Counted from the stretch's first letter, positions 1,061 to 34,203 are shown. The stretch is DNA of 37,804 nucleotides from a virus (IMGVR_UViG_2565956716_000007), one strand, 5' to 3'. The notes: generated by a model not told the origin, from the letters alone. Translations and numbers: made by a program.

Positions 1061-1070
1061 AATAAATCAA

Positions 1071-1103
1071 GGGGTTACGTGAAAGCGTAGCCCCTTTTTC
1101 TTT
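1071..1103 (+). terminator. rho-independent terminator downstream of ssrA
   Basis: GGGGTTACG-tgaaag-CGTAGCCCC stem-loop followed by TTTTTCTTT. Confidence 0.6.
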
Positions 1104-1183
1104 AGTAGTGGCGGCAAAATGGCGACAGACTTTTGCGTCCATCTTGCCTGTCGCCATCTTGAAATCATGCAAAGAGGTTTCAC

Positions 1184-1666
1184 ATGGAAGAACTTCACTT
1201 TGTTTACATCAATGCAAATGGTCGTATCGGTGTTCACTCTATACAGAGCATCAGTTATAGCGAAAATCATATACAGGGCATTTGTAAGAACACCGATCGA
1301 ATAAAAACCTTCCGAAAAGACCGCATTCTTAAACAGTACGATTCACCAGAACAAGCCATTCAGGAGTGCGCGTCATTCCTCCCCGAAAACTACTCACATC
1401 TCACCAAGCAGTCTGGTCCGAAAAAAAATACATTCGATGTGTGTTTCACCGGATTTAAGAAAGCAGATAAAGAAAGATTGGTTGATAAGGCGAATGAACA
1501 AGGATTAACGGTAAGAACCTCTGTAACCCAAAGCCTTCAGATGCTCTGTTGCGGTTACAATGCAGGCCCATCAAAAGTATCGGCAGCCAGGATGAAAGGC
1601 ACAATCATCATAGATGAGCCTGGCTTTATACATTTTCTTGAAACGGGTGAGATCCCAGATGAATAA
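1184..1666 (+). CDS. hypothetical protein with C-terminal BRCT-like domain (prophage cargo between att and ogr)
   Basis: 160-aa ORF with AGAGG RBS about 8 nt upstream; C-terminal ~75 aa (FDVCFTGF...GLTV...GPSKVSAARMKGTIIIDEPGFIHFL) follows the BRCT pattern seen in the LigA C-terminus; lower G+C than flanks by eye. Confidence 0.6.
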   Translation: MEELHFVYINANGRIGVHSIQSISYSENHIQGICKNTDRIKTFRKDRILKQYDSPEQAIQECASFLPENYSHLTKQSGPKKNTFDVCFTGFKKADKERLVDKANEQGLTVRTSVTQSLQMLCCGYNAGPSKVSAARMKGTIIIDEPGFIHFLETGEIPDE

Positions 1667-1667
1667 A

Positions 1668-1694
1668 AACCTGCCGTAGCAGGTTCTCTTTCTC
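1668..1694 (+). terminator. hairpin terminator between the BRCT-like ORF and ogr (probably bidirectional)
   Basis: Perfect 7-bp inverted repeat AACCTGC-cgta-GCAGGTT followed by CTCTTTCTC; A-run on the other side. Confidence 0.45.
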
Positions 1695-1911
1695 AAAAAT
1701 TCATATGCCCCTGACCACCTGGCAATGGATGTGGAGGAGCAGTAGCAATCAGTGCGGGTGTCACAATAAACCGGACCACTGTTTCATGGGTAACAAAAGT
1801 ACTCCCGCAGTTAATATTTTGGCACTGGCAGTAACGCTCTTTGGTGCTTTCAGTTACTTGAAAACTGCTCCTTGTGTGTGCCGCATGACCACACTTTGGA
1901 CAATTCATCAT
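1693..1911 (-). CDS. ogr: Ogr/Delta-family zinc-finger late-gene activator
   Basis: 72 aa from the internal Met (MMNCPKCGHAAH...CQCQNINC), the Cys4 signature and length of P2 Ogr; adjacent to gene D as in P2. Confidence 0.85.
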   Translation of the reverse strand: MMNCPKCGHAAHTRSSFQVTESTKERYCQCQNINCGSTFVTHETVVRFIVTPALIATAPPHPLPGGQGHMNF

Positions 1912-1979: not shown

Positions 1980-3080
1980 TTATTCCATTTCAAGATCATC
2001 AATCTTCACTTCGAGTTCAATACTGGTTGTAAAACCGTTATCCGGGCTGACGGTATGTGTCAGAGTCGTAATGGTCCATTCCGCATCATCTATCGGCTGT
2101 TTAAAACCACTGACCTTCACAGGCATTTCCGTGTAGAGATCTGCCCGCCCTTCCGCCAGTTGTAGCGAGAATGACGCAACGCCACGTTGCAGGCGTTCCC
2201 ACTGCATTTTCGCTGCCCGTTCAGCGTTGCTCCGGTTGGCATAAGTGCGATTAAGTACCAGCACGTTTTCATCCGTCCCCACCAGGTAATCGCCCTGCTT
2301 CGCTTCCGGCTCTTTCTTCTGCTTCTTAGTCCTGCGCTTACGCTTCACCGTAGTGCTTTCTTTCTTCGCGGGTTCGCGGGTATGCAACCAGCTGGCAATT
2401 ACCCCCGTGTAAGCTCCGCGATCTGCCAGGGTAAAGCGGTGACTGTCGCCGTCCTTACGTGTGATAGTAATCACCGGCAGTGGTTTACCGCTGGCGCTTT
2501 TGCCCTGTCCCTGCCGGATGAATAACAGATTGCCATTTTTCACCGATGCAATGGCACCGTACTGGCGCGCCAGCCGCATCAAAAAACTGCCGTCACTCTC
2601 ATTAGTCTGGTCTATATGCTCCACGGGCTTATCCGACAGGTCTTTACCCAGTGCCATCTTCAGCTTGTGCCGCGCGGCTATTTCCTTCACCACTTCCCCG
2701 ATGGTGGTGTTATGCCACGATTTTTCACGGCGGGTATTCAGCGTTTCCCGAAAATCAGCACTTCGCGCCCGGATAGTCAGGCGGTCCGGTGCGCCAGTGT
2801 GTTCAATCTCGTCCACCGTGAATGCCCCTTTCGGGAAAAGCGGCTGCCCCTTCCAGCCCAGCGCCAGCGTAATGACCGCACCACGGCGCGGCAGCACGAT
2901 TTTTCCGTCGGCGTCGTCCAGCTCCAGATCAAGCTGGTCCGCTTCAAAGCCCCGATTGTCCGTCAGCGTCAGACTCATCAGGCGGTTATCCAGCACAGTG
3001 GTGATATCCTTCCCCTCAATACTGATGCTGAATGCGGGAGTTTTGTTTCCTTTGTTAAGCAGTTCAGAGCTGAAATTCAC
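1980..3080 (-). CDS. D: tail protein gpD (P2 D-like)
   Basis: 366-aa ORF at the P2 gene D position (after U, before ogr); overlaps U by 4 nt. Confidence 0.8.
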   Translation of the reverse strand: MNFSSELLNKGNKTPAFSISIEGKDITTVLDNRLMSLTLTDNRGFEADQLDLELDDADGKIVLPRRGAVITLALGWKGQPLFPKGAFTVDEIEHTGAPDRLTIRARSADFRETLNTRREKSWHNTTIGEVVKEIAARHKLKMALGKDLSDKPVEHIDQTNESDGSFLMRLARQYGAIASVKNGNLLFIRQGQGKSASGKPLPVITITRKDGDSHRFTLADRGAYTGVIASWLHTREPAKKESTTVKRKRRTKKQKKEPEAKQGDYLVGTDENVLVLNRTYANRSNAERAAKMQWERLQRGVASFSLQLAEGRADLYTEMPVKVSGFKQPIDDAEWTITTLTHTVSPDNGFTTSIELEVKIDDLEME

Positions 3081-3562
3081 GACAGCAGCCCTCCCACCGT
3101 TTTACTGATATCGCTTAAGGCAGACGTTGCCGTGTCCTGCAGATTATTCAGTTGAGTACTGAGATCACCGAACATATCGGACAGGGATTCATCCACCCGT
3201 TTTAGCGAAAGGGTGAACTCAATCCTGCGCGGCATACCGTCGCGGAAAAACTCCGTTTTAGTCTGATTCAGTCCCTCAATCACATACATGCCGTAAATCG
3301 TGCCGCTGCCTTCAATCAGGGGCCATGCTTTCCCCTGTTCTGCCATCTGCTCCAGTGCCAGCAACGACAGCCTGCCGCCTGTTATCTCCGGCATAAGAAC
3401 ACCGGAAAGCGTCAGCATGTCGTTTTCCGGTCCCAGAAACTGCGTGGACGGACGACGGTTTACCCGGCTGTTTGCCGCATGTCGCCAGCTGCGTTGATAC
3501 TGCAGTTCCTGATACGGAACGGTGCGCAGCATAAACACGTACAATCCCAGCACCATCATCAT
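3077..3562 (-). CDS. U: tail protein gpU
   Basis: 161-aa ORF with P2 U-like size and position, translationally coupled to T and D. Confidence 0.75.
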   Translation of the reverse strand: MMMVLGLYVFMLRTVPYQELQYQRSWRHAANSRVNRRPSTQFLGPENDMLTLSGVLMPEITGGRLSLLALEQMAEQGKAWPLIEGSGTIYGMYVIEGLNQTKTEFFRDGMPRRIEFTLSLKRVDESLSDMFGDLSTQLNNLQDTATSALSDISKTVGGLLS

Positions 3563-6500
3563 GCGTCGTATCCCCCCTGATCGCTGTAGTTACTCCTGGC
3601 TTTTGCCTTCAGCCTGCGTTCACGTTCATCAAGCTGGCGTGCCACCTCCCGCGCAATATCCTGCGCACTTTGTCCTGGCTGCGTCTGAATGATGATCTGC
3701 GTCGGTGCCTCAATCCGTTGAACGAGCGGCACAGTGGCTGCGCGACTCACAATTGCTTCTCCACCTTTCGCGGGAAGTGCCAAAGGGTGCAACGGTGGAA
3801 GCTCTGCTGGCGCGGCAGCAACGCCCATCATTCCGGCAACAACGGCAGCCAGTGCAGCTGTATTTCTCCGGCTGGTCACATTTGCCGGGCCGTTAACAAT
3901 TTCCGGCCCGTTTTCACCGACGATGCCAAACTGCCCACGCGGGATATAGCCGCCGCTGTCATACATCCCCGCAAAGCCATATCCCCATGACGGAAAACCA
4001 CCCGATGGCATCATCACTTTACCGTCTGCATTCACCGTCGCAGGTTGCTGACGCGTCACGCTTTCCGGCAGTTTCGCCTTTGCAGCCTCTTTACTGACAA
4101 TGCCGAGTTTATCCAGCAACCAGGAAACGCCAGATTTCAGGGAGTCCAGCGGATGCATAACCATATTCAGCCCTTCCGCCAGTGCCTCCCCGAATCGTCG
4201 CCCCATTGCCGCTGCGCTCTGCAGTTCGGCAGAGGTCGACTTAACGGGCGTCAGCAGATCAGTAAACCAGCCCCACAGCGCCTGCACTTTGTCACCAATC
4301 CACTGGAACACAGGCTTAAGCGGTTCGAACGCTGCACTGATGGGACCTGCCGCCGCTTTGAATCCTTCCACCACGCCACCGAGAAATGCGGTGATGGGTT
4401 GCCAGTATTTCCAGACAACCAGTGCCACACCCGCCAGTGCAGTAACCACAAGACCTATCGGACTGAGCAAAGCACCTAACAGACCAGATACGGCATACAG
4501 GGCAACGCGCAACATCGCCAGTGGACCAGATGCCAGTACTCGCAGCACCGTGCCTGCGGCAGCCAGCCCGCCGCGCAGTACCGCCAGAGGATTCATAAAC
4601 ATCACAGCAACAGCACGTAAAGCGGATAATCCAGACCGCAATAGTGCAACCGGCGCACCTGCTACAGTTTTCAGGACATTTCCCGTCAGTGATGCCGTAC
4701 GGCGCAAAGACGACAACGGCGCAGTAAGTAAACCCGCTGCGTTACCCGATGAAGCAAGCCCGCGTCGCAGCACTGCCAGTGGAGCGCCAGCCAGCCAGGA
4801 CAACGCGCTGCTAGTTCGTGTTACTGCTGCCATAACGGAAGGTAACGTTTTGATGCCCAGCACAGAGAATCCCAGACGGATGACTGCCAGCGGCCCCAGC
4901 ACTGCAGCCAGCGCCACAGCCAGGGTGCCGAGGCCTACGGTAACCGCAGCCACAATAGCGGCTACTTTCATCAGTGTGCCCGTCAGTTCCGGGTTAGCTT
5001 CCACCCAGCGACGCAACGCTCCCGTAACGCTTTTCACCGTGTACAGAATATCCATCAGCGGCTGGCGCAGCGTTTCGCCCAGGCTGCTGAAGGTATTCTG
5101 CGCTCCGGTTTTAACCAGCAACCACTGAGCAGAAAGTGAGTCCTTGTTGATGTCGGATTCTTTCTGCATGGAACCGAGCGCATCATTGCCCGCTGTCAGT
5201 TTTAGCTGGCGCTGTAGTTCCGGCAGGTTGTTTGCCAGTTTCGCCGCGTCATCGCCAAACTCTTTACCAAACAACATGGTCATGGCAGACAGACGCTTGT
5301 CCTGCGGCAGTGCGTTCACCTTCTCCAGCACACGCTGGATAGTTCCCATCGCATCCTTCGTCATCTGCTTTTCAATCACTTCAGGATTGAGTTTCAGCAG
5401 ATTCATCCCTTCAAAGAAACTCTTGCTTTGCATGGTGGCAATGGACAATTCACGCACCATCGCGTTGGCAGCACTGGCAGCGACCTCCGGCGCAGCCCCC
5501 AGTGTCAGGAAGGTGGAACCCAGCGCCGCCGCTTTACGATAATCCAGACGATCAGCCACACCGCCCAGGCGTTGCATGACATCAATGATGTCTGCCCCTT
5601 TCGACATAGCGTTATCATCCAGATAGTTCAGCGCATCACCGAGCTGTTCAATATTGCGGGTTGGTATTTTGTAGAGCTGGGCGATTTTCCCCAGACTTTC
5701 TGACAGTTCATCCGCTGGCAGCTCAAAGGCTGTTGCCGCCTTTGCTGCCGTACTGGCGAAGGCCAGCAGGTCACGTTTCTGGTCCTCCCAGCTGCCGTCA
5801 GGGTTTGCCACATTCATGCGCGCACCACCTTCAACCAGTGCGGCGAAGTCCACAGCACCGTTTTCCATTGGCAGCTGTTCACTGGCAGCTTTGATGGCAT
5901 CCTGCATTTCGTAAAAACGCGCAGTGCGGTTGCCATTATCGTCACGCAGACCATTGACCTGCTTTGCCACACCTTTCATGGCATCTTCCATGCTGGTATA
6001 GCTTTTTACCGCCGCCATCACTGGCGCGCCCATTGCCAGCCCTGCAGCCGTGGTGGTGGCTCCGGCTCCTGCGATGCGATCGCGCACTTCAAGCCGTCTT
6101 GAGTATTGTTCTCTGGCAGCGTTCATCCGTGCCTGTTGTTCACCCAGACGTTTAAGTGCTTTTTGCTGGCCCTCCAGTGCCTGACGAGTTTCTTCGGCAT
6201 TTTTCTTAAGTTCTCGCTGGGCACTACTGAGTTGTCTGGTATCAATCCCTGATTCTTTAAGTGCCTGACGTTGTCTCTGGACCGCCCCCAACAAGCCGTT
6301 ATAGGTCTGCTGAAGTTCCTGTACTCGTGTTTTGGCCTGACTGAATAACTTTGCCTGCGCGGCGGTTGGCCTGTTAGTGGCAGCAAATTGTGTGGCGAGT
6401 TTTGCCGCCTCTTCGCGGGCTGCGTTCAGGTTGTTGGCTGTTATGGCTAGTTGCGAGCGCGTCTTGCGAAATTCATCAATTCTGCCAGCCTGCTTATTCA

Positions 6501-6636
6501 GTTCTTTGAGGCTGTTTCGGGTATTCTGAATTGCGCCAGCCAGCTCTTTCGAACTGGCCTGTGCAGCACGGAATGGGCGGGTGAGTTTGTCAACCGCATT
6601 AAGAATGACCTGCAGGCGCAGGTTATTATCACTCAT
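3559..6636 (-). CDS. T: tail tape measure protein gpT
   Basis: 1025-aa ORF with coiled-coil-rich N-terminal half and hydrophobic tandem repeats (PLAVLRxGLxxxG); follows E/E' as in P2. Confidence 0.85.
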   Translation of the reverse strand: MSDNNLRLQVILNAVDKLTRPFRAAQASSKELAGAIQNTRNSLKELNKQAGRIDEFRKTRSQLAITANNLNAAREEAAKLATQFAATNRPTAAQAKLFSQAKTRVQELQQTYNGLLGAVQRQRQALKESGIDTRQLSSAQRELKKNAEETRQALEGQQKALKRLGEQQARMNAAREQYSRRLEVRDRIAGAGATTTAAGLAMGAPVMAAVKSYTSMEDAMKGVAKQVNGLRDDNGNRTARFYEMQDAIKAASEQLPMENGAVDFAALVEGGARMNVANPDGSWEDQKRDLLAFASTAAKAATAFELPADELSESLGKIAQLYKIPTRNIEQLGDALNYLDDNAMSKGADIIDVMQRLGGVADRLDYRKAAALGSTFLTLGAAPEVAASAANAMVRELSIATMQSKSFFEGMNLLKLNPEVIEKQMTKDAMGTIQRVLEKVNALPQDKRLSAMTMLFGKEFGDDAAKLANNLPELQRQLKLTAGNDALGSMQKESDINKDSLSAQWLLVKTGAQNTFSSLGETLRQPLMDILYTVKSVTGALRRWVEANPELTGTLMKVAAIVAAVTVGLGTLAVALAAVLGPLAVIRLGFSVLGIKTLPSVMAAVTRTSSALSWLAGAPLAVLRRGLASSGNAAGLLTAPLSSLRRTASLTGNVLKTVAGAPVALLRSGLSALRAVAVMFMNPLAVLRGGLAAAGTVLRVLASGPLAMLRVALYAVSGLLGALLSPIGLVVTALAGVALVVWKYWQPITAFLGGVVEGFKAAAGPISAAFEPLKPVFQWIGDKVQALWGWFTDLLTPVKSTSAELQSAAAMGRRFGEALAEGLNMVMHPLDSLKSGVSWLLDKLGIVSKEAAKAKLPESVTRQQPATVNADGKVMMPSGGFPSWGYGFAGMYDSGGYIPRGQFGIVGENGPEIVNGPANVTSRRNTAALAAVVAGMMGVAAAPAELPPLHPLALPAKGGEAIVSRAATVPLVQRIEAPTQIIIQTQPGQSAQDIAREVARQLDERERRLKAKARSNYSDQGGYDA

Positions 6637-7065
6637 CGTTGGCCCCGCTTCTCTGAATCGCTTTATACCGCCATTCCAGCACTTCGGTCAGCGGCATAAC
6701 GTCAGTAACGGATGGCGGCCAGTGAAAGATGGTGGCGATATCAGCCACCAGATCGTCAACCGTCAGGCTGTCGGTAAACCGGCAAGCACCGACTTCTTCA
6801 ACAAAAAAGTGACAACCTCAACCGACATGGCAGTGAGATCTGCCGGGTCCATCTCTGCAATTTCCTGTGCAGTCAGTGCCGGACTGGAGATGCGGGGGAT
6901 CACGGTCATCATCGCGTTCACATCCATATCCATAATGGCCTGCAGGCGTGTACCGCGCAGCGCACCGGACTGCGGTTTACGCAGCACAATTTCGGTGATT
7001 TCTGTTTTACCGCGCTTGATGGGGGTATCCAGTTGAATAGTCTTTTCAGTCTGCTTATCGCTCAT
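6629..7065 (-). CDS. gpE+E' tail assembly chaperone (programmed -1 frameshift product)
   Basis: After a -1 slip at T TTT TTG the reading frame stays open for 57 codons and stops at a TGA overlapping the T start codon, the P2 E/E' arrangement. Confidence 0.5.
6763..7065 (-). CDS. E: tail assembly chaperone gpE
   Basis: 100-aa ORF between FII and T; contains the slippery heptamer near its 3' end. Confidence 0.75.
   Translation of the reverse strand: MSDKQTEKTIQLDTPIKRGKTEITEIVLRKPQSGALRGTRLQAIMDMDVNAMMTVIPRISSPALTAQEIAEMDPADLTAMSVEVVTFLLKKSVLAGLPTA
6802..6808 (-). promoter_or_regulatory. slippery heptamer TTTTTTG for the E/E' -1 frameshift
   Basis: Minus-strand T TTT TTG in the zero frame of E (codons F87-L88). 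Confidence 0.55.
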
Positions 7066-7119
7066 TTTGCTGTCCTGTAAATTGGGTTCTGGCGCGGTAT
7101 CCCGCGCCGTTCAGATACA

Positions 7120-7635
7120 TCAGAGGCCGAGGGCGTTGCGGTGCGCTTCCATCAGGTCCACACCGTCCACAATTTCCACCATGTTGATAAGGTCCACTTC
7201 ATAGAGCACCTCACCATTTATAGTCAGCTTCGCGTAGCTGTTGGTACTGGTCACTTTGGTGGTGTTGCTTTCGCCCGTCTTCCACTCGCCGGAATCCACT
7301 TCTTTGTGACGTCCACGCACCACAAGCTCCACGGCCTGCACTTCCCCGGTATCGTCACGCTGGATAGAGCCGGTAAAGCGCAGCTGGATACCATCCACCG
7401 TGGCTTTGCCCATCTGCTTAAACAGCAGCAGTTCAGTACCACCAATGGAAAATTCCGTATCCAGTGCGCCGTCATCCAGCCCCAGATCCACATCCACTGC
7501 ACCCGGCATTCCGCCGCCGCGATACTTCTCATATTTGCGGGTAAATTTCGGCAGCGTCAGCGACTCAACGATCCCCTGCCAGTTGTTCCCGTCATTAAAC
7601 AGGTTCAGGTGTTTTAATTTGCGTGGTAAAGCCAT
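7120..7635 (-). CDS. FII: tail tube protein gpFII
   Basis: 171-aa ORF directly downstream of the sheath gene; P2 FII-like size. Confidence 0.85.
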   Translation of the reverse strand: MALPRKLKHLNLFNDGNNWQGIVESLTLPKFTRKYEKYRGGGMPGAVDVDLGLDDGALDTEFSIGGTELLLFKQMGKATVDGIQLRFTGSIQRDDTGEVQAVELVVRGRHKEVDSGEWKTGESNTTKVTSTNSYAKLTINGEVLYEVDLINMVEIVDGVDLMEAHRNALGL

Positions 7636-7644
7636 GTTGTCCCC

Positions 7645-8817
7645 TTACGCGCTGACCTGGCTGGAGAAATTCACCAGGTACTGATCGGTGATGCGCTGAC
7701 GCAGCATCAGGTTTTCAAGTGGCGGCACTGGCGTGTAGTCGTAGTCGATGGTGAGTTTTCCGGCTTTCAGCGTGTCTTTGTCGTTCACCGACTCATCCAG
7801 CCAGCAATCACCACCAATGAGATAGCCCTGACTGACCAGGCTGCGCATTTTGGCGCGGATACCCTCGATAATGTCGCGGGCCAGCGACGGATTCAGCGGT
7901 TTATCCACCGCCCACATGTGCGCTTCTGCCATCGTGTCCGTCAGCACCTGCGCCGTGCGGGTGTAGTTTTCGAAGGCAAAGAGCGGGTCATCACTCAGGC
8001 AGCGGGAACCCCAGAAGCGAAAACCGTCTTTGCGGATAAGGGTGGTGACGTCGTTCTGGTTCAGCAGTCCCGCATCGGTTGCCGGGTCCTGCAGATCCCA
8101 GAACACATCAGCAGAAATTCCGGTGACACCGTTAACGCCCACGTTGGACAGGCTTTTGTGCCATCCGGTCTGCTCGTCAATTTTGGCGCGCAGACCAAGC
8201 GCACGGGCGGTGGCATAAGCCGTTGCTTCGGCATTCAGCACCGTGTCCCAGCCAGTAAAGTCGGGCCAGATCAGCATTCCTTCACGCTGACTGAAGTTTT
8301 CACGGTAAGTGATTGCTTCCTGCACTGTCTTGCAACCATACGCTGACAGGTAAGCAAATCCACGCAGGCTTTGCGCCACGCTCAGCAACTCAGTAGCTAC
8401 CGCCTTCGTGTCGTGACCTGGCACGCCGAGAATGCGCGGTTTAACGCCGAGCTGTGACTGGGCAGATAACAGGGCTTTCATGCCTGTTTTTTTACCTTCA
8501 GCGGTCACTGCTCCGATGATATTGGTCGTGGTTTCTTCTTCCGTTTCACCCTGCGGCACACGCACAACAACGGTCACGGGTTTTGCCTGGTCAGCGATGG
8601 CATCCAGCGAACGAGCCAGCGTGCCTGACTCACCCGCTTTACCGCTGGCAGTCAGCACATCAGTGATCAGCACGGGTTTATTAAGAGGAAACATTTTTGC
8701 ATCGGCATCATCGCCCGTGCAGACCATACCCACGATGGCGGTGCTCACCGTGGTAATGGATCGGGTGCCTTCGTTGACTTCAACAACGCGCACCCCGTGG
8801 TGGTAATCCTGAGCCAT
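7645..8817 (-). CDS. FI: contractile tail sheath protein gpFI
   Basis: 390-aa ORF, first gene of the FI-FII-E-T-U-D block; P2 FI-like size. Confidence 0.88.
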
Positions 8818-8893: not shown

Positions 8894-8911
8894 TGTACCG
8901 TTATTCACACA
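8894..8911 (-). promoter_or_regulatory. candidate Ogr-dependent late promoter element (TGT-N12-ACA) upstream of FI
   Basis: TGTaccgttattcacACA centred about 85 bp upstream of the FI start codon. Confidence 0.45.
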
Positions 8912-8959: not shown

Positions 8960-9526
8960 TCAGGGAGATTTATTGTTCTTATTTGCCGGAAATTTTCGAT
9001 AAATGGTAGAAACGCCTACATCAAAAATCAGTGCAATACGCTGTCTTGATTCTCCGGCCTCGAGTAAACGCCCAATCTGTGCCCACTGTTCGCTGGTCAA
9101 CTTAGGACGGCGTCCACCTACTCTGCCTTTAGCACGAGCTGCAGCCAGCCCCGCCCTGGTACGTTCAACTATCAGTTCGCGTTCCATTTCAGCCAGGGCA
9201 CCCATGACATGAAAAAAGAAACGGCCCATTGGGGTGCTGGTATCAATACTGTCAGTCAGGCTTCGGAAATTCACGCCACGCTGGCGCAGCTCTTCTATCA
9301 GCGTAACAAGATGCCGCATACTGCGCCCCAGTCTGTCCAGCTTCCAGACAACCAGCGTGTCTCCTGCCGATAGTGTCCTGAGCAGCTTTTTCAGCCCCGG
9401 TCTGTCGGACTTGGTGCCACTGATTTTATCCTCAAAAATCCGCTCACATCCCGCACAGTTCAGTGCATTGCGTTGCAAATCGGTGTTCTGGTCATTTGTT
9501 GACACGCGTACATAGCCAATAAGCAT
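8960..9526 (-). CDS. serine recombinase, Hin/Gin/Pin/Cin-family DNA invertase
   Basis: Begins MLIGYVRVSTNDQ (catalytic Ser region), has the resolvase/invertase core and C-terminal HTH; GGGGG RBS 6 nt upstream of the ATG at 9526; abuts the invertible tail-fibre segment. Confidence 0.85.
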   Translation of the reverse strand: MLIGYVRVSTNDQNTDLQRNALNCAGCERIFEDKISGTKSDRPGLKKLLRTLSAGDTLVVWKLDRLGRSMRHLVTLIEELRQRGVNFRSLTDSIDTSTPMGRFFFHVMGALAEMERELIVERTRAGLAAARAKGRVGGRRPKLTSEQWAQIGRLLEAGESRQRIALIFDVGVSTIYRKFPANKNNKSP

Positions 9527-9581: not shown

Positions 9582-9607
9582 TTTTCATAAACGTTCAATT
9601 GGGAGAA
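9582..9607 (+). repeat. 26-bp invertase crossover site (gix/hix-like), left
   Basis: TTTTCATAAACGTTCAATTGGGAGAA is an imperfect inverted copy of 11134..11159 (17 of 26 identical, same central dinucleotide) at the junction with the alternative fibre C-terminus. Confidence 0.5.
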
Positions 9608-9937: not shown

Positions 9938-9939
9938 CC

Positions 9940-16457: not shown

Positions 16458-16458
16458 T

Positions 16459-25518: not shown

Positions 25519-25537
25519 ACTGTTTATATTTACAGTA
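25519..25537 (-). promoter_or_regulatory. LexA (SOS) box
   Basis: ACTGTTTATATTTACAGTA matches CTGT-N8-ACAG; an overlapping weaker box is at 25503..25522; about 45 bp upstream of the ATG at 25476. Confidence 0.6.
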
Positions 25538-25629
25538 TATAATAATCTTACTGATGTAAAACGTTTTTTTACGTTCATCAGCCTGATATGCCTGGTATTA
25601 TTAAGAGCACGAATTGTTAACCCGCGTAA

Positions 25630-28044
25630 TTAATACAGGTTCCGCCACTGATCATCTTCCTGCAAACGCTGGTTCCGATAGAAGATACGCAGGCCTGCTC
25701 CTGACGGAATACTGCCTCCGCGAAGGAGTAAATCGACCTCTTTCTCGCTGCCATCAAATCCTCTGGACTTCAGCTCATACACGAGCTGCAGTCGCTGATG
25801 GTCTGTAATTCGCTGTTTGTAGTCTTTACGCCGTTTCGGTTTCACCAGGCGTAACCTTGCTGCCAGTTCCCGGCGCTCTTTTTTGCTCATACTGTGCAGG
25901 TAATCGTGCAACTCCTTGTCATCCATGCTGGTAATGTCCGTTCTGGGGTCCCCATCAGCTGATTTATCTTTCTCCTGTTGGTTCAAATTTTCAGCAAGGG
26001 GACAGTTATTGCCACGAGTCCAAGGGGCGCAAGCGCCCTGGTCGGCTGCCGCCTCCTGAACGTCAACGGCCTTACGAACCATTTTCCACTTCACGGCATG
26101 AGTGCAGATCTTGCCCTCTGCAATAGGTGACCAGATGCCATAAATACGAATGCCGTGATCGCCATAGGCGGTCGGCTCTTCGTTGATTTCATACGCAGTT
26201 CTGATGAGGTGATATTTACGGGGAACCAGTACGCCGCCCTGCTTCATGATGTAGGTGGCAAAACAACCAGCATCAGCAGCAGCCAGGATTGCATCAAGGC
26301 GCGGGTTATCCAGTACCGGCGCACCTGCTTTTTTGTCACCCTGTTGCCTTGCCGCCTGACCAGCCAGCAATCGCAGTTCACGGTAAGCCTGACGCCCCGG
26401 AATGCCAAAGAAGCGGAATTGCTGAACACGATGCAGAGACGCCCAGGCATTCACGTATTCAGCGTTATCACGCAGGGATTTACCCGTTTCCTTGCTGATC
26501 TCGCCAGCCAGACCACGCCCGTCAATGTTCTTACTGATATATTTCGCGATGTAGCTTGTCGGCGTTCCTTTGCGCGGGTTAATCAACTCAGACTTAAAGC
26601 GCGGCCCCGTGTTATTGCCCAGCTCCTCGCGGTCTTCACGGATGGCAAACTTACGCAGTAATGCAGTGATGGCGCGGCGGTCTTTTTTGCGCATAAAACA
26701 CAACAGGTGCCAGTGAACTGTACCGTCATGATGCGGCTCAGCCACCCGTACGCCATACCAGCGCAATCCGGCTTTGTGCATCGCCTTACGAAATGCAGCA
26801 AACATGCCGACCAAATAATCACTGCTTTGTCTTACCGTCGCATTTGTCCAGTTCGGGTTGGGCCTGCCGTTATTTAGCGTGGAATGGAAACGTGACGGAC
26901 AGGTGATGGTGTAGAAAACGGCGCAGTCACCGCGCATTTCCGCGATAAGTTCCAGACCTTTAACACAGGCCATCATCTCATTGCGGCGATGCGCAGGGTT
27001 GCTGCTGCTGGCGTTTACCACATCCTCCATGTCCAGCGTGTCGCCGTCTTCGTTCACCAGTTCATGAGAACGGAAAAACTCCAGCGACTTACGGCGCTGC
27101 TCACGTTTATGCATCACGGCTTCATAGCTGACATAAGGAGATGCTTTTTTGCTGACCAGGCAGACAGCGCGCAACTGCTCTTCCCGCCATTCGCAACGCA
27201 TCTTCCATAATTTCCGATACCACCAGTCGGCGCACAGCATACGCGCCAGCGAACCCGGAATGAGTTCATAGGGCACAGGTTTGCGGCGGTTTCTTTTCCG
27301 GCGGAGTTGCTCAAACGCAGGCGGTATGACATCCAGTCGCAGGGTTTCTGCTGCCACCTTTTCCCATGTCTTGCGGATTTCTTCCGGCTTAACATCATCG
27401 GAGGCGTACAAATCACCACAAGCGGCATCAAGACACATGCTCATATGCGCAGCGACAAGGGTGGACAGGCGTTTCACCTGATCCTGACTCATTTCAGGCA
27501 GGATCAGCAGACCGTCCAGCCCTTCATGGCTTGCCATAAAACGAAAAGATGCAGATAGCTGGCTGTCGCGTACATGCTCCAGTCGTTCCAGGCATGGCTT
27601 AATCGTCTCACGCAAATAGCGGGAATAAGCCTTTGGCCTGCCCAGGTTGCTGAAGTATTTAATACGTTGCATCAGCGGCTTGCTGATATGGGAAGGCTGG
27701 GCGTTGACATCCGCCAGAATGACCATGTCTGGATTAAAACGCTGCTGCTCATGCGCCAGCTTTGCCCGGCTAATTAGCTTATCCTGCTCCATTTCGCGCT
27801 GGACAGGATCACGGGATTCATTAAAGAAATAACGCTCCCAGACCTGATCACTCAGTGCCTCGCGGCGCAGTTGTTCCTGCTCGTTATCGGCAGCGTACAG
27901 AGTGATCAGGTTTGAAAGCGCAGAAACCGGCGCAACTTCCGCCGGGTCCAGATAAGGGTTAATGGCCTTTTTCGGGCTGTTCCATGAGAATGCTGCGGCA
28001 GCCTCGTTAAAGCCGCAGCAGTTGTTCATATCGGCATGACTCAT
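25630..28044 (-). CDS. A: replication initiation protein gpA (rolling-circle endonuclease)
   Basis: 804-aa ORF, the largest early gene, at the P2/186 A position; start overlaps the dam stop. Confidence 0.85.
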
Positions 28045-28898
28045 GCACGTACTCCGTACACGGCAGAACTGTCCACGCCACGCGAATAATCAAATCCCAC
28101 CCAGCAGCGCGGCCCGGAAACAGCAATGATTTCTGTTGCTGATTTACCCTCGCCAGCTGCCACACCGATGTTGCGTTTTGCCTTGATGTAGTGGTGAGTA
28201 AAATTGCGATACAGCGAACGGATCAGGGATGTGTCACTGTTAGAAACAATGACCGGATGTCCTTCTGATGACCGATGTTCAAGAACGGATGCCAGGTGAT
28301 ACTGGTCATCTTCAGTGAAGCCGTCAGTGTGATAACCGGAAAACGTGCCGTCATACGGCGGATCGCAATACACCACATCCCCCGCCTTCAACATCGCCAG
28401 CGTTTCATCAAAGCTGGCGCAGATAAACGTTGCCCGCTGGGCTTTTTCTGCAAATGCGCGAATTTCTTTTTCAGGGAAATACGGATTTTTATAATTACCG
28501 TAGGGAATGTTGAAATGCCCGCTCTTGTTATAGCGACATAAACCACGGTAACCGTGACGATTGAGATACAGGAAATATACCGCTTTCATGAAATCAGTAA
28601 TTTCAGTGGAGTAATTAAACTCCTGCCTTATGTTGTAATAAGCCACCTCCCTGTTTGCGATCTCAAATAAAACTCTGGCGCGAGATATAAACGATTCACA
28701 ATCAGCGGCAACCTTTTTATAGAGGTTGATTAAATCAGGATTAATATCCGCAACCAGATAGCTGGGGTAATCCGTCTCCATCATCACAGCACAGGAACCC
28801 GCGAAAGGTTCAACCAGTCGCGGGCCAGCAGGAAGGTGTTTTTTCAGTTCGGACATAATGGCGGTTTTATTTCCCGCCCATTTCAGGATGGTGCTCAT
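28041..28898 (-). CDS. dam: DNA adenine methyltransferase (Dam-like)
   Basis: N-terminal LKWAGNK and catalytic DPPY motif ([10 protein letters not shown]); GGAGG RBS; start taken at the internal Met. Confidence 0.85.
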
Positions 28899-29122
28899 AC
28901 AGCACCTCCGTTGTAATGTTTGCCTTTCAGCTCTGCGATTTCCTGACAGGTAATGCAAAGCTGCACACCTGGAATGGCGCGGCGGCGTGCTGGCGGAATT
29001 GGCGCTTCACACTCAATGCAAAGCACGCGGGACACGCCCGGCGTTTTGGCACGGGCAGCACGGATATGGCGCTGGCGTTCTTCTTCAACGCGCTGCTGTA
29101 CAAGATCCATTGCATCAGCCAT
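28895..29122 (-). CDS. TraR/DksA-family C4 zinc-finger protein
   Basis: 75-aa ORF with CIECEAPIPPARRRAIPGVQLCITC. Confidence 0.7.
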   Translation of the reverse strand: MADAMDLVQQRVEEERQRHIRAARAKTPGVSRVLCIECEAPIPPARRRAIPGVQLCITCQEIAELKGKHYNGGAV

Positions 29123-29361
29123 TAGTGGATCTCCTGCGCTTCGTTCTGGATTGCTTCAGCAGTTACACGCAGTAGTTCTGCTGCTTCGACGTGGTTTAGC
29201 TGGCGGGATGTGATATGACACGCCAGGCTATCAAGGCGAGCTGCCATTGCTTCAGCCCTTGCCCGGCGTTCTTCCAGACGAGCCTCTGTCAGTAAAATAT
29301 TAAGCCCTGCATCATCCGGTCCGGTTTTAGTCGTGAGGGTTTCAATATTACGCATAATCAA
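29122..29361 (-). CDS. hypothetical early protein
   Basis: 79-aa ORF translationally coupled to the downstream gene. Confidence 0.45.
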   Translation of the reverse strand: MIMRNIETLTTKTGPDDAGLNILLTEARLEERRARAEAMAARLDSLACHITSRQLNHVEAAELLRVTAEAIQNEAQEIH

Positions 29362-29422
29362 TTCTCCTGAATTTAGATAAAGGGATACCCGGCGGGTTTA
29401 CGCCATTAATTTCATTAGTTGG

Positions 29423-29764
29423 TTAATTCGGCATGGTTAGCCGTCTGGGAAATAAGCTCACCACTGCACGAAAATGATTCATTGCTTTAATCAACTCCCG
29501 CTTTTCGTCAGTGGTCAGCTCATTAATGCTGATGCTATGACGTTCAGCTGGAATTTTTGCCATAAAGAATATAGCAGCCAGTGCCCGTTTATTTTGTTCG
29601 TTATTGATATCCCGTGGATCACGCATATCTTTAATAAACCGCTCAAGCTCTGACTCAATATTCAGGCCAAATACTTTCGCCCTTAACTCCGCAATATGGT
29701 TAAGTCCATTCAGGCGTTCACCGGGGCTTAATGGAACAGTCGCCGCAGCGCCTTCAATAGCCAT
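29423..29764 (-). CDS. hypothetical early protein
   Basis: 113-aa ORF in the early operon; true start uncertain. Confidence 0.4.
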   Translation of the reverse strand: MAIEGAAATVPLSPGERLNGLNHIAELRAKVFGLNIESELERFIKDMRDPRDINNEQNKRALAAIFFMAKIPAERHSISINELTTDEKRELIKAMNHFRAVVSLFPRRLTMPN

Positions 29765-29958
29765 TTGTTCCCCCGTTTTTTCGTAGATAGTTCTGCCAGC
29801 AATTCATCTTGTGAACGGCACGGATGCCAGCGTTTACCATCCTCCCCCATGATCCAGCCGTGACCGTAGTGCATTGCCGGGCTTTGTTTTACCAGCAGCG
29901 ATGCAAATGATGGTTCTTTCGTCAGCATAAGCACCTCACAGCAAACCGAATGACGCAC
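29728..29958 (-). CDS. hypothetical early protein
   Basis: 76-aa ORF overlapping the cII 3' end; true start uncertain. Confidence 0.35.
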   Translation of the reverse strand: MRHSVCCEVLMLTKEPSFASLLVKQSPAMHYGHGWIMGEDGKRWHPCRSQDELLAELSTKKRGNKWLLKALRRLFH

Positions 29959-30445
29959 CGAGGCCAGTTACAGTATCAACTGCACTTGCCATCGCAGGAT
30001 TAGCCTGTAAACGGGCCTGCAATGAAACAGCCGCCAGCGCCATCAGTCGTGTTACAGAGTTAATGCTGCTGATAGCATCACGACGACCTGCACTGGTTTT
30101 TACATCGCCAGATACCGCACCTGCAGCAACACGCCCGATCTCTGCAGTTGCACTCATGACGTAATGCGGCAGTTTCTCTTTTGCCACCTCATTAATCGGA
30201 ACACATGGCAGACAATGAATCTGTGCCAGAAAACCGTCTACCAACGTTGAATCTTCAGTCAGATCGGTAAGCAACCAGATTTCTGGTGCGGTGAGCTGAT
30301 GCGGTTGATCTGGATTGAGTTTGTTTCGCAGTGTCTGAACATTCATTCCTGCACGTTCTGCCAGCTTTGCCATATTGTGACGTAGTGCAAAAGCTCTACA
30401 GGCTTCATCAAAATGCGGATGTTTGGAAATCTTGTAATCAAACAT
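29936..30445 (-). CDS. cII: CII-like lysogeny establishment regulator
   Basis: 169 aa, the length of 186 CII; N-terminal HTH region; directly downstream of apl. Confidence 0.7.
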   Translation of the reverse strand: MFDYKISKHPHFDEACRAFALRHNMAKLAERAGMNVQTLRNKLNPDQPHQLTAPEIWLLTDLTEDSTLVDGFLAQIHCLPCVPINEVAKEKLPHYVMSATAEIGRVAAGAVSGDVKTSAGRRDAISSINSVTRLMALAAVSLQARLQANPAMASAVDTVTGLGASFGLL

Positions 30446-30477: not shown

Positions 30478-30726
30478 TTAGTCACCAACGATGACATTAA
30501 AGTTGAAATTGGATTGGCCCATGTTTTTCCTGACTTGTTCCTTTTTGTACTCAAGGTAACGTATACATACTCTGTCTTTCGGTTTTTCTTTTCTTTCCAA
30601 GAATTTAGCGAGTTTACCATTATGAATCATTTGATATACCGAACCGCGAGAGCGGCCTTCCCATTCCGCGAACTCAGCTGGTGTCGCCATCACTTTTGGT
30701 ACACGAATTGAAATGTCGTTGCTCAT
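30478..30726 (-). CDS. apl: Apl/Cox-like excisionase and lytic regulator
   Basis: 82-aa HTH protein, first gene of the lytic operon, divergent from cI. Confidence 0.7.
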   Translation of the reverse strand: MSNDISIRVPKVMATPAEFAEWEGRSRGSVYQMIHNGKLAKFLERKEKPKDRVCIRYLEYKKEQVRKNMGQSNFNFNVIVGD

Positions 30727-30785
30727 AGTGCAGTATCTCTCGATTAAGGTTTGGTTTACGTCGTTTTATCTTGTTTTATTTGATT

Positions 30786-30828
30786 CAATATTTGATACAC
30801 CAAGATACTACGATCCAATATTTGATAC
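30786..30828. promoter_or_regulatory. operator-like direct repeats in the cI/apl switch region
   Basis: CAATATTTGATAC occurs twice, 30 bp apart (30786..30798 and 30816..30828), between the divergent apl and cI genes. Confidence 0.4.
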
Positions 30829-30845
30829 GTCAACAGGGTTAAAAA

Positions 30846-31478
30846 ATGATACAAGTAAAAGCTGGCGAGAATACAGGGGGAAGAGAGGCTATCCATAGGC
30901 TAATGGCAGCCTATGATTTCAAGTCCAGACAGCAACTTTGCGATCACTTGGGCGCATCAAAAAGCACTATGGCAAACAGATACTTAAGAGATAGTTTTCC
31001 TGCAGAATGGGTGATTCAGTGCGCTTTGGAAACAGGAGTTTCTTTACTGTGGCTAACTACCGGACAGGGCGATCCAGGTTCAAACATTGACCCTAAAAAA
31101 AATATCAATTCCGTGAACTCTAGCAAAGTTAAACCTCTTTCGGAGCTTGTATCTCCTGAAATTGACAAGGCAACTCTCAACGGAGGTTTGCTGATCGATG
31201 CTGGAAAAGCAATCATTGATAGCAGCATACTCCCCTCAGACTCAAGCAACCTGCTGCTGGTGACTACTTCTGGTGATTCTTATTTAATAGATCGCAACCA
31301 AACACCACCAGTAAATGGTACGTGGTTAGTGGACATCGACGGGATAAAAAGCATTGTAAAATTGACACGACTCCCGGGAAACAGATTAGTAGTGCATCAG
31401 GATGATTCATCGTTTGAGTGCGAACTGGATGACATTGAGGTAATAGGCCGCGCACTGAAAATCATTAAGAGCCTTTGA
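30846..31478 (+). CDS. cI: CI-like immunity repressor
   Basis: 210-aa ORF divergent from apl and followed by int (186 layout); true start may be an internal Met. Confidence 0.7.
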   Translation: MIQVKAGENTGGREAIHRLMAAYDFKSRQQLCDHLGASKSTMANRYLRDSFPAEWVIQCALETGVSLLWLTTGQGDPGSNIDPKKNINSVNSSKVKPLSELVSPEIDKATLNGGLLIDAGKAIIDSSILPSDSSNLLLVTTSGDSYLIDRNQTPPVNGTWLVDIDGIKSIVKLTRLPGNRLVVHQDDSSFECELDDIEVIGRALKIIKSL

Positions 31479-31479
31479 T

Positions 31480-32493
31480 ATGACCATCAGAAAACAGCCG
31501 AACGGAAAGTGGTTATGTGAATGCTACCCAAACGGGCGAGATGGCAAACGCGTACGCAAACAATTTGCGACGAAAGGCGAAGCCATTGCGTTTGAGAATT
31601 TCACCATGGACGAGGTAAACAAGAAACCTTGGCTGGGAGAAAAGGAAGATCGGCGACACCTATCAGAATTAATTGAGCTGTGGTATTCCCTGTATGGTCA
31701 AACACTCGCAGACCCCAAGCGACTCATGGCGAAACTTGGAATTATCTGTAATGGTCTGGGCGATCCCATCGCTTCAGAGCTGACTGCCGGTGACTTTACG
31801 AAATACCGCGAAGCACGGCTAAAAGGTGAAGTGCGAAATGAAGATGGCACGCTGATGTCGCCCGTTAAGCCCCGCACGGTAAACCTTGAACAGCGCAATC
31901 TATCATCTGTGTTCGGTACATTAAAAAAACTAGGACACTGGTCAGCACCAAACCCGCTGGCAGGACTTCCGACCTTCAAAATTGCCGAAGGTGAGCTGGC
32001 TTTTCTTTCCACGGACGAAATCAAGCGCCTGTTGGCGGCATGTGCTGAATCTCAAAGCCCTAGCTTACTAATGATTGCAAAAATATGCCTGGCTACTGGC
32101 GCACGGTGGAGTGAAGCCGAAAATCTGCAGGGCCATCAAATATCGAAATACCGAATTACTTATACAAAAACAAAAGGCAAGAAAAACCGTACTGTGCCGA
32201 TATCTCAGGATCTGTATGATGAACTCCCCAAAAACAGAGGAAAGTTATTCACGCCATGCAGAAAAGCCTTTGAGCGGGCAGTAAAGCGGGCCGGTATTGA
32301 CCTACCGGAGGGCCAATGCACCCACGTGCTTCGCCATACATTCGCCAGTCACTTTATGATGAACGGCGGAAACATACTGGTACTGCGTGATATTTTGGGT
32401 CATGCCGATATAAAAATGACCATGATTTACGCCCACTTTTCGCCCGATCACCTTGAAGACGCGGTGACTAAAAATCCTCTTTATAATTTGTAG
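31480..32493 (+). CDS. int: tyrosine integrase (P2/186 Int family)
   Basis: 337-aa ORF with C-terminal catalytic region HVLRHTFASHF...LGHADIKMTMIYAH. Confidence 0.9.
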   Translation: MTIRKQPNGKWLCECYPNGRDGKRVRKQFATKGEAIAFENFTMDEVNKKPWLGEKEDRRHLSELIELWYSLYGQTLADPKRLMAKLGIICNGLGDPIASELTAGDFTKYREARLKGEVRNEDGTLMSPVKPRTVNLEQRNLSSVFGTLKKLGHWSAPNPLAGLPTFKIAEGELAFLSTDEIKRLLAACAESQSPSLLMIAKICLATGARWSEAENLQGHQISKYRITYTKTKGKKNRTVPISQDLYDELPKNRGKLFTPCRKAFERAVKRAGIDLPEGQCTHVLRHTFASHFMMNGGNILVLRDILGHADIKMTMIYAHFSPDHLEDAVTKNPLYNL

Positions 32494-32505
32494 TGGAGAC
32501 CTATT

Positions 32506-34026
32506 GTGATTCAAAAATTAGATATTCAATCTGATGCGGTTGCAAAGTTAAGAATGGATGCTATTCGTTCAGAAATCCAAGGTTATTCCCCTGATTTATT
32601 TATCGAATTCTGTATGCAATATAACTTACAAAAATTTGAAGATAATATCCACATGTTACGACACATGCCTTGGATTGTTAATTTATGTCTAAAGTGGTCT
32701 GCGTCAGTAACTGGCAAGAATAAAAAATTCAAAATCCTCGATAAAAATCAAGCAATAAAACTCTTCCAAAAAACTTATGAAACCTTGAACATTATTCCTA
32801 TCGGTCTTGAGAGGAAGAATGGCATGCATTTCTTCATTAGAAATAATCTATACCAACAAGGAATCTACCAGAAAATTGACGCTCTAAACACAATTAGCAG
32901 ACAAGTCTTTCTATTTTCAGAACTTGAAAAAAACCATAAAATAAAGACAAGTTTTTTTACTATCACGAATGTATCTATCGAAGACTTTCTTAAGCTATCT
33001 TACATATTAATAACTCACATAACAGAAGAGCATCCCGTGAGAAAAATGAATGTAGATACATTTACTATATTATTTGACATCATTCCTAGAAATACCATTG
33101 AGAAATTTCTTGATGCAATATCAATAAATTACAATGAACTATCTACATTTTGCAAATCAAAAACCTATGATAAACCTTTGCTTGAATACTACTCATCATC
33201 ACCTTTCCTTGAAAAACCATTAATAAAAAAAGGTTCAGAGTATTTTCAGATACACACACAACTGACTTCAACAAGCATACAGACGTTCATATATGATCTT
33301 TTAAGAAGAACTGATGCCGAGAAGTTCATGGATAGCTTTGGAAATGTATTTGAAAATGCACTGGAATTAATACTAAAAGAAAGCGAAATTGATTTTCATA
33401 ACGAAAAATACCTTAAAGAACGACTACCTAAAGATAATAAAGTAGTTGATTATTTCATTCCACATACTGAGGCAAATATTTTCATTGATGCTAAAGGCGT
33501 TGAGATACACCAAAAAGGCATGGTAACATTACGCCCTGAGGATATTGCAGGAAAAATAAAGAAATCGGTATTAAAAGCAATCGAACAATCTCACGAAGTT
33601 AATCGAGAAATATACTCTAATGAGCGAATAATAGCTCCATTCAGGGCTAACTCATATATCATTTGCATTACATATAAAAACCTTTTCTTAGGCAATGGTA
33701 GTATCCTAGCTAATACTTATGCTAAAGATGAGATGAATAAGATATATGACAAGTTTAAACATAACTATCATATCCCTACAGAGAATATTTTTTGTCTATC
33801 ATTTGAAGAGTTTGAATATCTCATTGCATCATGCAAAAGGTTTAAAATTCCGCCTCATGAAGTCTTGCAATCTGCAGTTGAAAAGAACAAAAAACCATCA
33901 AGTGCTGCTTTCCTATTTTCCCACCATATAGAAGACTATTTTGATAGAGTAGTCAATTCAGTCATAGTCAATGAGGCAGGCATTAAAATGGTAGATTCTA
34001 TTATCAATAAATTAAAGCCTGAATAA
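32506..34026 (+). CDS. hypothetical protein with PD-(D/E)xK-like nuclease motif (AT-rich cargo between int and att)
   Basis: 506-aa ORF with GTG start and GGAG 7 nt upstream; strongly AT-rich; FENALELIL...VVDYFIP...IFIDAKG resembles E / D / D-x-K nuclease motifs. Confidence 0.7.
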   Translation: MIQKLDIQSDAVAKLRMDAIRSEIQGYSPDLFIEFCMQYNLQKFEDNIHMLRHMPWIVNLCLKWSASVTGKNKKFKILDKNQAIKLFQKTYETLNIIPIGLERKNGMHFFIRNNLYQQGIYQKIDALNTISRQVFLFSELEKNHKIKTSFFTITNVSIEDFLKLSYILITHITEEHPVRKMNVDTFTILFDIIPRNTIEKFLDAISINYNELSTFCKSKTYDKPLLEYYSSSPFLEKPLIKKGSEYFQIHTQLTSTSIQTFIYDLLRRTDAEKFMDSFGNVFENALELILKESEIDFHNEKYLKERLPKDNKVVDYFIPHTEANIFIDAKGVEIHQKGMVTLRPEDIAGKIKKSVLKAIEQSHEVNREIYSNERIIAPFRANSYIICITYKNLFLGNGSILANTYAKDEMNKIYDKFKHNYHIPTENIFCLSFEEFEYLIASCKRFKIPPHEVLQSAVEKNKKPSSAAFLFSHHIEDYFDRVVNSVIVNEAGIKMVDSIINKLKPE

Positions 34027-34158
34027 GTCTCCCAAGCAAAACCAGTGGCGGCATTTTGGCGGCAGAGCATTAAAAATGCGTAAAACAGACAAACACAAAA
34101 TAATACTAACATACTGATTTTAAACATAAGTTCATGTTTTTGTTATAGTAAAAATGGT

Positions 34159-34203
34159 ATGTAGGAATTTCGGACGCGGGTTCAACTCCCGCCAGCTCCA
34201 CCA
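34159..34203 (+). repeat. 45-bp att core (ssrA 3' end), right copy
   Basis: Exact copy of 1016..1060; flanks diverge immediately on both sides. Confidence 0.75.

Follow-up and report, generated by a model that had tools for sequence, protein, structure and literature searches.

The 37,804-nt viral DNA stretch IMGVR_UViG_2565956716_000007 (hereafter the window, meaning the whole sequence analysed) contains a prophage of 33,143 bp, spanning 1062-34204 between attL and attR, which is related to Fels-2 and is inserted at the 3' end of the tmRNA gene ssrA. The chromosomal genes on its left side and the attachment sequences are as follows.

1-483: smpB, at the start of the window.
698-1060, plus strand: ssrA (tmRNA gene), detected with ARAGORN, encoding the tag ANDENYALAA, with the attachment site at the 3' end of the gene.
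1016-1061: attL core, 46 nt, identical to the attR core and containing the Fels-2 attP core CAACTCCCGCCAGCTCCACCAA.
1069-1096, plus strand: phage-supplied terminator hairpin in the P' arm, with a 12-bp stem and a T-run, kept in the Fels-2 attP.
34159-34204: attR core, 46 nt, a perfect direct repeat of the attL core.

The repeat at 1016-1061 covers the 3' end of ssrA, and the terminator formerly located after this gene was replaced by the phage hairpin. An earlier note on this DNA, made from the sequence alone, had placed the element at 1061-34203; the perfect 46-nt repeats show that these are the true attL and attR limits, and its proposal of integration at ssrA as in Fels-2 agrees with the presence of the annotated Fels-2 attP core within the repeat. 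The smpB-ssrA flank was matched by all 5,426 complete E. coli genomes searched, and the flanking DNA is, judging from its sequence, that of E. coli. The left junction between ssrA and the prophage was common to 165 of these genomes, and at least 80% of the early and cargo half was covered in 16 genomes, with ~99.6% identity. This type of prophage is already known, common in E. coli and present in many annotated genomes.

Another att scar, which is decayed and has a P' arm (37760-37804 and beyond), together with a remnant of a pinH-like invertase at ~37288-37600, could indicate two adjacent elements in tandem at ssrA instead of one phage. However, both the scar and the remnant are located outside attR, while the region between attL and attR contains a single set of phage genes, collinear with single phage genomes, and no internal att core was found there by repeat search. 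The length of the element falls within the 30.6-34.1 kb of six reference genomes, and 33.1 kb fits one capsid. A tandem arrangement is extremely improbable.

The six references used throughout were P2 (Peduovirus), 186 (Eganvirus), PSP3, RE2010, Fels-2 (Felsduovirus; NC_010463) and Cartapus (Elveevirus cartapus, prophage 4 of LF82; NC_070909). The late region comprises the following features, with amino acid (aa) identities.

1693-1911, minus strand: late activator of the Ogr / 186 B family, 72 aa (PF04606, E=9e-21).
1980-8817, minus strand: tail operon FI, FII, E, E+E', T (1025 aa), U and D, all full length, 98-100% aa identity to Cartapus.
8894-8911: TGT-N12-ACA activator dyad (late promoter), upstream of FI.
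10796-14620, minus strand: baseplate and tail fiber operon V, W, J, I and H, full length, 97-100% aa identity to Cartapus.
14667-14684: TGT-N12-ACA activator dyad upstream of V, its center ~55 nt before the V ATG.
14689-20496, minus strand: head, lysis and tail-completion operon O, N, M, L, X, holin, endolysin, LysA-like, LysB/LysC, R and S.
16080-16457, minus strand: LysA-like gene, between endolysin and LysB (phrog_162, NF038378).
20575-20592: TGT-N12-ACA activator dyad, in the divergent O/P promoter region.
20639-23445, plus strand: terminase large subunit P and portal Q, 99% and 95% aa identity to Cartapus.
24814-24905, minus strand: cos region, with the candidate cohesive-end sequence GGCGTGGCGGGGATACGAG at 24821-24839.

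The Peduoviridae backbone (Q P; O N M L X, lysis, R S; V W J I H G; FI FII E E' T U D) is complete, ordered and full length, and is accompanied by other hallmarks of the family: an Ogr/Delta zinc-finger activator with TGT-N12-ACA dyads, a cos-like site and a GpA-type replicase. This agrees with the completeness claimed earlier, since no late gene is truncated, and cos, the slippery site of E/E' and the late-promoter dyads were all identified; the genes for morphogenesis, packaging, lysis, replication and integration are all full length relative to Cartapus or RE2010. The slippery site TTTTTTG (6808-6802) leads to a 145-aa E+E' product; its E' portion matches the Cartapus E' ORF exactly. The tape measure gene T has an in-frame indel relative to Fels-2, and its product has the same length as in Cartapus, while H diverges from Cartapus H only at the C-terminal tip. 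Six TGT-N12-ACA dyads were found window-wide, with four in the 352 nt of the three late-promoter regions versus 0.09 expected. In the annotated P2 genome, the V transcript starts at the ATG. The cos region showed 78% identity over 93 nt to 186 cos and 95% to that of Fels-2, and the Cartapus record begins at its putative cos, in the equivalent place. The holin and endolysin show 99-100% identity to the Cartapus proteins but no detectable similarity to the P2 or 186 counterparts, and no counterpart of the LysA-like gene was found by tblastn in P2, 186, PSP3, Fels-2, RE2010 or Cartapus.

The Ogr-type activator adjoins D (1980-3080), with a gap of 68 nt, as had been noticed before; its gene is the one at 1693-1911, and the ORF at 1067-1270 (minus strand), considered as a candidate for ogr, was discarded for lack of Ogr similarity and its location in the P' arm. 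The protein shows 67% identity with 186 B, 56% with P2 Ogr and 99% with its Cartapus homologue. The description of the late gene order as exactly that of P2 holds for the essential genes, but not beyond them: orf30 and fun(Z) are missing, the position of fun(Z) is occupied by an invertase and an alternative fiber cassette, and the holin and endolysin are unrelated.

The lysogeny switch and the early operon contain the following features.

25630-29928, minus strand: distal part of the early lytic operon, encoding Fil, DUF5347, DUF2732, a DksA-type zinc finger, Dam methylase and replicase A.
29936-30445, minus strand: cII, 169 aa (PF06892, E=2e-44), 71% identity to 186 CII and 93% to Fels-2.
30478-30726, minus strand: apl (Cox-like excisionase/repressor), 82 aa (phrog_575, phrog_6912), 30% identity to 186 Apl and 70% to Fels-2.
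30782-30833: switch region, with two 22-nt repeats (GATYCAATATTTGATACRYCAA), putative CI operators, over a pR-like promoter, TTGACG-17-TAGTAT (minus strand).
30846-31478, plus strand: cI repressor, 210 aa, of the 186 two-domain type (PF07022, E=6e-31; PF16452, E=5e-28).
31480-32493, plus strand: ssrA-specific tyrosine integrase (int), 94% identity to Fels-2, 54% to 186 and 38% to P2.

The arrangement reported in the note was found here: cI-int on the plus strand, divergent from apl-cII, with a CII of exactly 169 aa. Fil is 82% identical to 186 Fil, and replicase A (804 aa, PF05840) is 98% identical to Cartapus A. No P2 homologue of cI, cII, apl, fil, tumA or tumB was detectable, in line with the earlier view that these features are of the 186 type and missing in P2. 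No similarity to P2 C or cox was detected in the immunity region and CI carries 186-type domains, so the early region is 186-type, not C/cox-type, and the alignment result that the note had named as refuting its reading did not occur.

These two sets of genes were the basis for the proposal in the note that the prophage is a mosaic, in which a P2-type late region and ogr were joined to a 186-type immunity and SOS region. On the surface there are indeed two sources, since P2 homologues were found for the late genes only, while 186 alone matches cII, fil, cI, apl and tumB. However, the annotated 186 genome has the same late order as P2, with the Ogr homologue B situated between D and attP, immediately after D; the supposedly P2-type traits therefore do not discriminate P2 from 186. 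Comparison of 20 late proteins gave mean aa identities of 51.3% to P2, 51.4% to 186, 51.5% to PSP3, 88.4% to RE2010, 88.8% to Fels-2 and 97.2% to Cartapus. The paired difference between P2 and 186 was -0.11 points, with P2 closer in 9/20 genes (Wilcoxon p=0.78), and the Ogr-like protein is nearer to 186 B than to P2 Ogr. The mosaic claim is supported on neither count.

The whole-genome alignment against P2, 186 and Fels-2, which the note had named as a check, showed a Fels-2-like sequence over the whole length and gave no support for a hybrid. The prophage is collinear with Fels-2 across 81% of its length, with 73-95% nucleotide identity and gaps at modular loci only. In contrast, P2 and 186 match the late region only in patches (63-73% nucleotide identity), and of these two phages only 186 aligns with early DNA, over short stretches in cII-fil, the zinc-finger gene and the 3' end of int. 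Each half is collinear with Fels-2 and Cartapus at 80-100% identity, and no identity step was found at the putative junctions. A recombinant origin of this kind is very improbable.

Intergenomic similarity was 81% to Cartapus, 67% to RE2010, 66% to Fels-2, 18% to 186 and 15% to P2, according to a rough BLASTN estimate (not VIRIDIC), for which the usual genus line is 70%. By this estimate the prophage is at genus level with Elveevirus cartapus and is a sister of Felsduovirus. Its identity is virtually certain, and we regard it as very probably a single intact Fels-2-like temperate phage of the Peduoviridae at E. coli ssrA, and not a recent P2 x 186 hybrid. The late backbone, with Ogr/B beside D, is common to P2, 186 and the Fels-2-like phages, and the 186-type lysogeny circuit is found throughout the known members of the Fels-2-like lineage. 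The combination of a P2-like virion module with a LexA/Tum-controlled, 186-like switch is thus standard in 186 and in Fels-2-like phages, and does not imply a hybrid.

The closest relative, Cartapus, shares with the prophage the cos-to-cos layout, the invertase, the 1025-aa tape measure, an identical TumA, the tum promoter with its LexA box, and the same 160-aa protein gene between ogr and attP. It differs in cI (53%), operators and tail fiber tips, carries a RES-domain gene at the int-att locus (here gapS1) and a DUF4145 gene at the cos-Q locus (here a TIR gene), contains additional genes following tumB and others between S and V, and is devoid of the LysA-like gene. Fels-2 and RE2010 have in common with it an ssrA attachment site with the same core, a split tumA/tumB behind an identical LexA-boxed promoter, the 186-type cI/apl/cII/fil, dam, a Gin-type invertase, an alternative fiber cassette and an integrase with 94% identity. 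In contrast, their late proteins are ~89% identical, cI 59% and apl 70%, the tape measure is 90 aa shorter, other cargo is present at the same hotspots, and the nucleotide similarity (66-67%) is below the 70% genus line.

The more distant phage 186 resembles the prophage in its two-domain CI, Apl, 169-aa CII (71%), Fil (82%), B beside D and a LexA box over the tum -10 (TACTGT), but it integrates at ileY, encodes Tum as a single fused protein of 146 aa, and lacks dam, LysA and an invertase (of which a relic crossover site is all that is left); the identities are ~51% for late proteins, 32% for cI and 30% for apl. P2 shares the essential late order, the E/E' frameshift, the TGT-N12-ACA late promoters, cos, the A replicase family and Ogr. 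Unlike the prophage, P2 has C/cox immunity and lacks cII, fil, tum and LexA control; it carries orf30, fun(Z), old and tin, has an unrelated holin and endolysin, and its late proteins are ~51% identical. P2 is classically non-inducible.

The CI repressor is 59% identical to that of Fels-2, 53% to that of Cartapus and 32% to that of 186, with a range of 53-59% over Cartapus, RE2010 and Fels-2. The switch region also differs from those of Fels-2 and Cartapus. The divergent CI and the different operators suggest a separate immunity type, so that the phage is probably heteroimmune with Cartapus; the assignment of the 22-nt repeats as CI operators is itself putative. A single TCAANNNTTGA was found at 31080, in an FL-like position, and no convincing candidate for a pL promoter was found in the switch region. 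The N-terminal helix-turn-helix (HTH) core of CI (SKSTMANRYLRDSFPAEWVIQCALETG) is nearly invariant among the window, Fels-2 and Cartapus. Control of the ogr promoter by CI, as for 186 pB, through the TCAATATTGA palindrome upstream of ogr was considered and discarded: this palindrome is likewise kept in both of the relatives Fels-2 and Cartapus, although they have different CIs and operators, and the spacing of its half-sites is unlike that of the pR repeats.

The SOS module consists of three features.

25518-25560, minus strand: SOS promoter, with the -35 TTTACA (25560-25555), a 17-nt spacer and the -10 TACTGT inside the LexA box.
25288-25476, minus strand: tumA-like ORF, 62 aa, a putative LexA-controlled antirepressor gene, 98-100% identity to Fels-2 and Cartapus.
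25044-25277, minus strand: tumB, DinI-like, 77 aa (PF06183, E=7e-23).

The LexA box TACTGTAAATATAAACAGTG (25518-25537) has three mismatches to the 20-nt consensus, and no other box in the window has an intact CTG/CAG. The -10 TACTGT is made up of the first six bases of this box, which is followed downstream by AGGAGG and the 62-aa ORF. The LexA-boxed tum-like module described in the note is thus present, as a box overlapping the -10 of a tumA/tumB operon, a design like that of 186 p95. The promoter and box do not differ by a single base between the window, Fels-2 and Cartapus. TumB is 100% identical to the Fels-2 protein, 78% to PSP3 TumB and 41% to the C-terminal half of 186 Tum. At the profile level, 186 Tum matches phrog_8554 (residues 4-44, E=1e-11) and phrog_698 (residues 7-44, E=2e-5), and the 62-aa ORF matches phrog_698 (4e-38), phrog_8554 (2e-8) and phrog_1993, the PSP3-TumA family (2e-3). 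Lemire et al. reported that the tum of Fels-2 and PSP3 is split by a stop codon (PMC3121763). Tum of 186 was reported to bind and inactivate CI, and in PSP3 the antirepressor activity was assigned to the upstream gene (PMC3121763).

By analogy with 186 and Fels-2, CI would repress the lytic promoter driving the operon from apl, cII and fil through to A. DNA damage would lead to LexA cleavage and derepression of the tumA-tumB promoter, after which TumA would inactivate CI and the DinI-like TumB would modulate RecA. Apl would then promote excision, A would initiate rolling-circle replication, the Ogr/B-type zinc finger would activate three or four late promoters through the TGT-N12-ACA dyads, and the DNA would be packaged from cos.

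The genetics of Fels-2 bear on this scheme. As far as the summary of Bunny et al. 2002 in PMC12626290 goes, a lexA null mutation is lethal in S. Typhimurium LT2 and all survivors are Fels-2-free, which supports a path from LexA cleavage through TumA to the loss of CI repression. Several points weigh against inducible, productive growth. BLASTP revealed no similarity of TumA to 186 Tum or PSP3 TumA, the link to these being at the profile level only, and the compatibility of TumA with CI in this prophage is assumed, given a CI with 53-59% identity to those of Fels-2 and Cartapus and different operators. Inactivating point mutations in some protein could escape inspection of the sequence. Cartapus reached only ~3e5 genomes/mL spontaneously in LF82, was not among the ciprofloxacin-induced LF82 prophages, and no Cartapus virions or indicator strain were found (PMC9928086).

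The prophage could then be intact but neither SOS-inducible nor productive, a low-activity element kept mainly for its defense cargo. The behavior of Cartapus in LF82 (weak spontaneous release, no ciprofloxacin induction listed, no virions; PMC9928086) points in this direction, since its late genes are 97% identical at the aa level and its tum promoter and TumA are identical. So do two decayed prophages described below, which keep the early region, the TIR gene and ogr without Q to D, showing that selection can retain the cargo and early part alone. However, the lethality of lexA null mutations in LT2 depends, according to the same summary, on Fels-2, whose promoter is identical and whose TumA shows 98% identity; lysis of LF82 cells by the very active prophage Gally, 50-80 min after ciprofloxacin, may conceal Cartapus; and all the cis and trans elements for lytic growth are intact here. 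We consider a dormant cargo carrier rather unlikely, and SOS-inducible productive growth, with the infectivity that it would entail, moderately probable. The earlier description of the prophage as probably SOS-inducible and likely active is thus reasonable from what that summary gives of Fels-2 genetics, but is weakened by Cartapus, which has the same tum promoter and TumA.

The near-invariant TumA and HTH core, set against divergent CIs and operators, raise a question about immunity specificity. With TumA 98-100% identical among phages whose CIs are only 53-59% identical and whose operators differ, cross-induction of heteroimmune relatives is conceivable.

The gaps in the alignment with Fels-2 correspond to discrete modules: the 160-aa protein gene, the tape-measure indel, the fiber segment, the LysA-like gene, the TIR gene, the middle of cI and the gapS1 gene. 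Three of these are cargo genes.

1184-1666, plus strand: gene for a 160-aa protein with a BRCT-like C-terminal domain, between attL and ogr (phrog_2561, E=2e-77).
23497-24738, minus strand: gene for a TIR-domain protein, 413 aa, between cos and Q, in the GpA-GpQ hotspot.
32506-34026, plus strand: gapS1, 506 aa, GC 0.32, in the int-att hotspot (NF047931, 428.5 bits versus a cut-off of 320).

The GpA-GpQ and integrase-att loci are published defense hotspots of P2-like phages (PMC9122126; PMC13586616). The gapS1 gene is also annotated as such in RefSeq for a near-identical prophage. GapS1 is a validated PD-(D/E)xK defense protein for which a capsid protein is the trigger and dormancy the outcome, and anti-phage activity was shown for its Vibrio and E. 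coli homologues (bioRxiv 10.1101/2023.03.28.534373).

The TIR protein combines an N-terminal TIR domain, possibly of the CAP12/Pycsar type, with a beta-rich C-terminal domain; a conserved NVLxELGYA segment of the TIR domain includes the invariant residues E96 and G98. Over 4,500 homologues, ~411-415 aa in length and invariant in their N-terminal FYSWQSD, make up its family, which spans Proteobacteria and further phyla of bacteria, Cyanobacteria and Nitrospirota among them. No member was found in 50,697 phage records, and the gene was not called as a system by PADLOC 2.0. The exact protein was present on contigs in at least 259 blocks of a public assembly index, at the same locus in the cases inspected. 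In two prophages of this type in other E. coli genomes (L010 6001-8862 and L012 6001-8875) the Q-D late region was lost and the TIR gene is directly followed by ogr; by their gene content, they are decayed forms in which the early region and the cargo remain.

In the lysogen, GapS1 and the TIR protein, located at P2-family hotspots, would probably defend against other phages, the role of the TIR protein being a presumed one. Its C-terminal domain may be a new sensor within a candidate single-gene defense. More tentatively, and with odds that we place below even for the two ideas taken jointly, the 413-aa protein may be the prototype of a widespread, uncharacterized single-protein defense, or TumA may be a pan-lineage antirepressor that induces heteroimmune relatives in trans.

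The 160-aa protein is 99% identical to Cartapus gp32, which is a moron with expression 15-fold over background in the LF82 lysogen (PMC9928086). Its BRCT match (E=1e-3) is under the Pfam cut-off, and no sigma-70 promoter was found for the gene. In the circular phage this gene is co-directional with cI-int-gapS1 across attP, and integration puts it just 3' of ssrA, behind the phage-supplied terminator.

The cassette at the fun(Z) position is a tail fiber inversion system with the following elements.

8960-9526, minus strand: serine DNA invertase of the Gin/Cin/Pin type (PF00239, E=3e-53, and HTH_7), 98% identity to the Cartapus invertase.
9599-11143: invertible tail fiber segment, bounded by 65-nt inverted repeats (9599-9663 and 11079-11143).
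To 9937, plus strand: silent H' tip, within the invertible segment.
9940-10362, plus strand: silent G' chaperone, within the invertible segment.
10334-10774, minus strand: active G, within the invertible segment, alongside the active H tip (minus strand).

The domains Caudo_TAP and Gp53-like_C were found in the segment. Both inversion arms encode, in frame, the peptide LGEAAKR(N/D)VG..G..(I/V)PDM.SF, so that inversion would swap the fiber tip together with its chaperone, and the Gin-type invertase would in this way alternate two tail fiber tips. A fiber switch of this kind is absent from P2 and 186. The strain carries a probably functional, possibly SOS-responsive myovirus with two likely anti-phage genes and a host-range inversion switch, which is of relevance for the phage resistance of the strain and for prophage induction by DNA-damaging antibiotics.

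Beyond attR, the region of the ypjA/EhaD AIDA-type autotransporter is split into three ORFs (34364-37147, minus strand), and is annotated in RefSeq as a frameshifted pseudogene in a near-identical strain, relative to which the window is ~605 bp shorter here. The pinH-like recombinase remnant (37288-37600, minus strand) has 78% nucleotide identity to the prophage invertase (9264-9397). The decayed att scar is located between this remnant and ypjCB, and continues in L007 (10267-10342); it consists of the last ~16 nt of the ssrA core and a 61-nt P' arm with a terminator hairpin, and is 95% identical to 1046-1122, suggesting an earlier occupancy of ssrA by a Fels-2-like phage. In the near-identical strain PCP06235, a tRNA-Ile gene, presumably ileY, the attachment site of 186, was found at L007 12559-12634, ~2.3 kb past the end of the window; if so, the attachment sites of two related phages lie within ~3 kb of chromosome, excluding the prophage.

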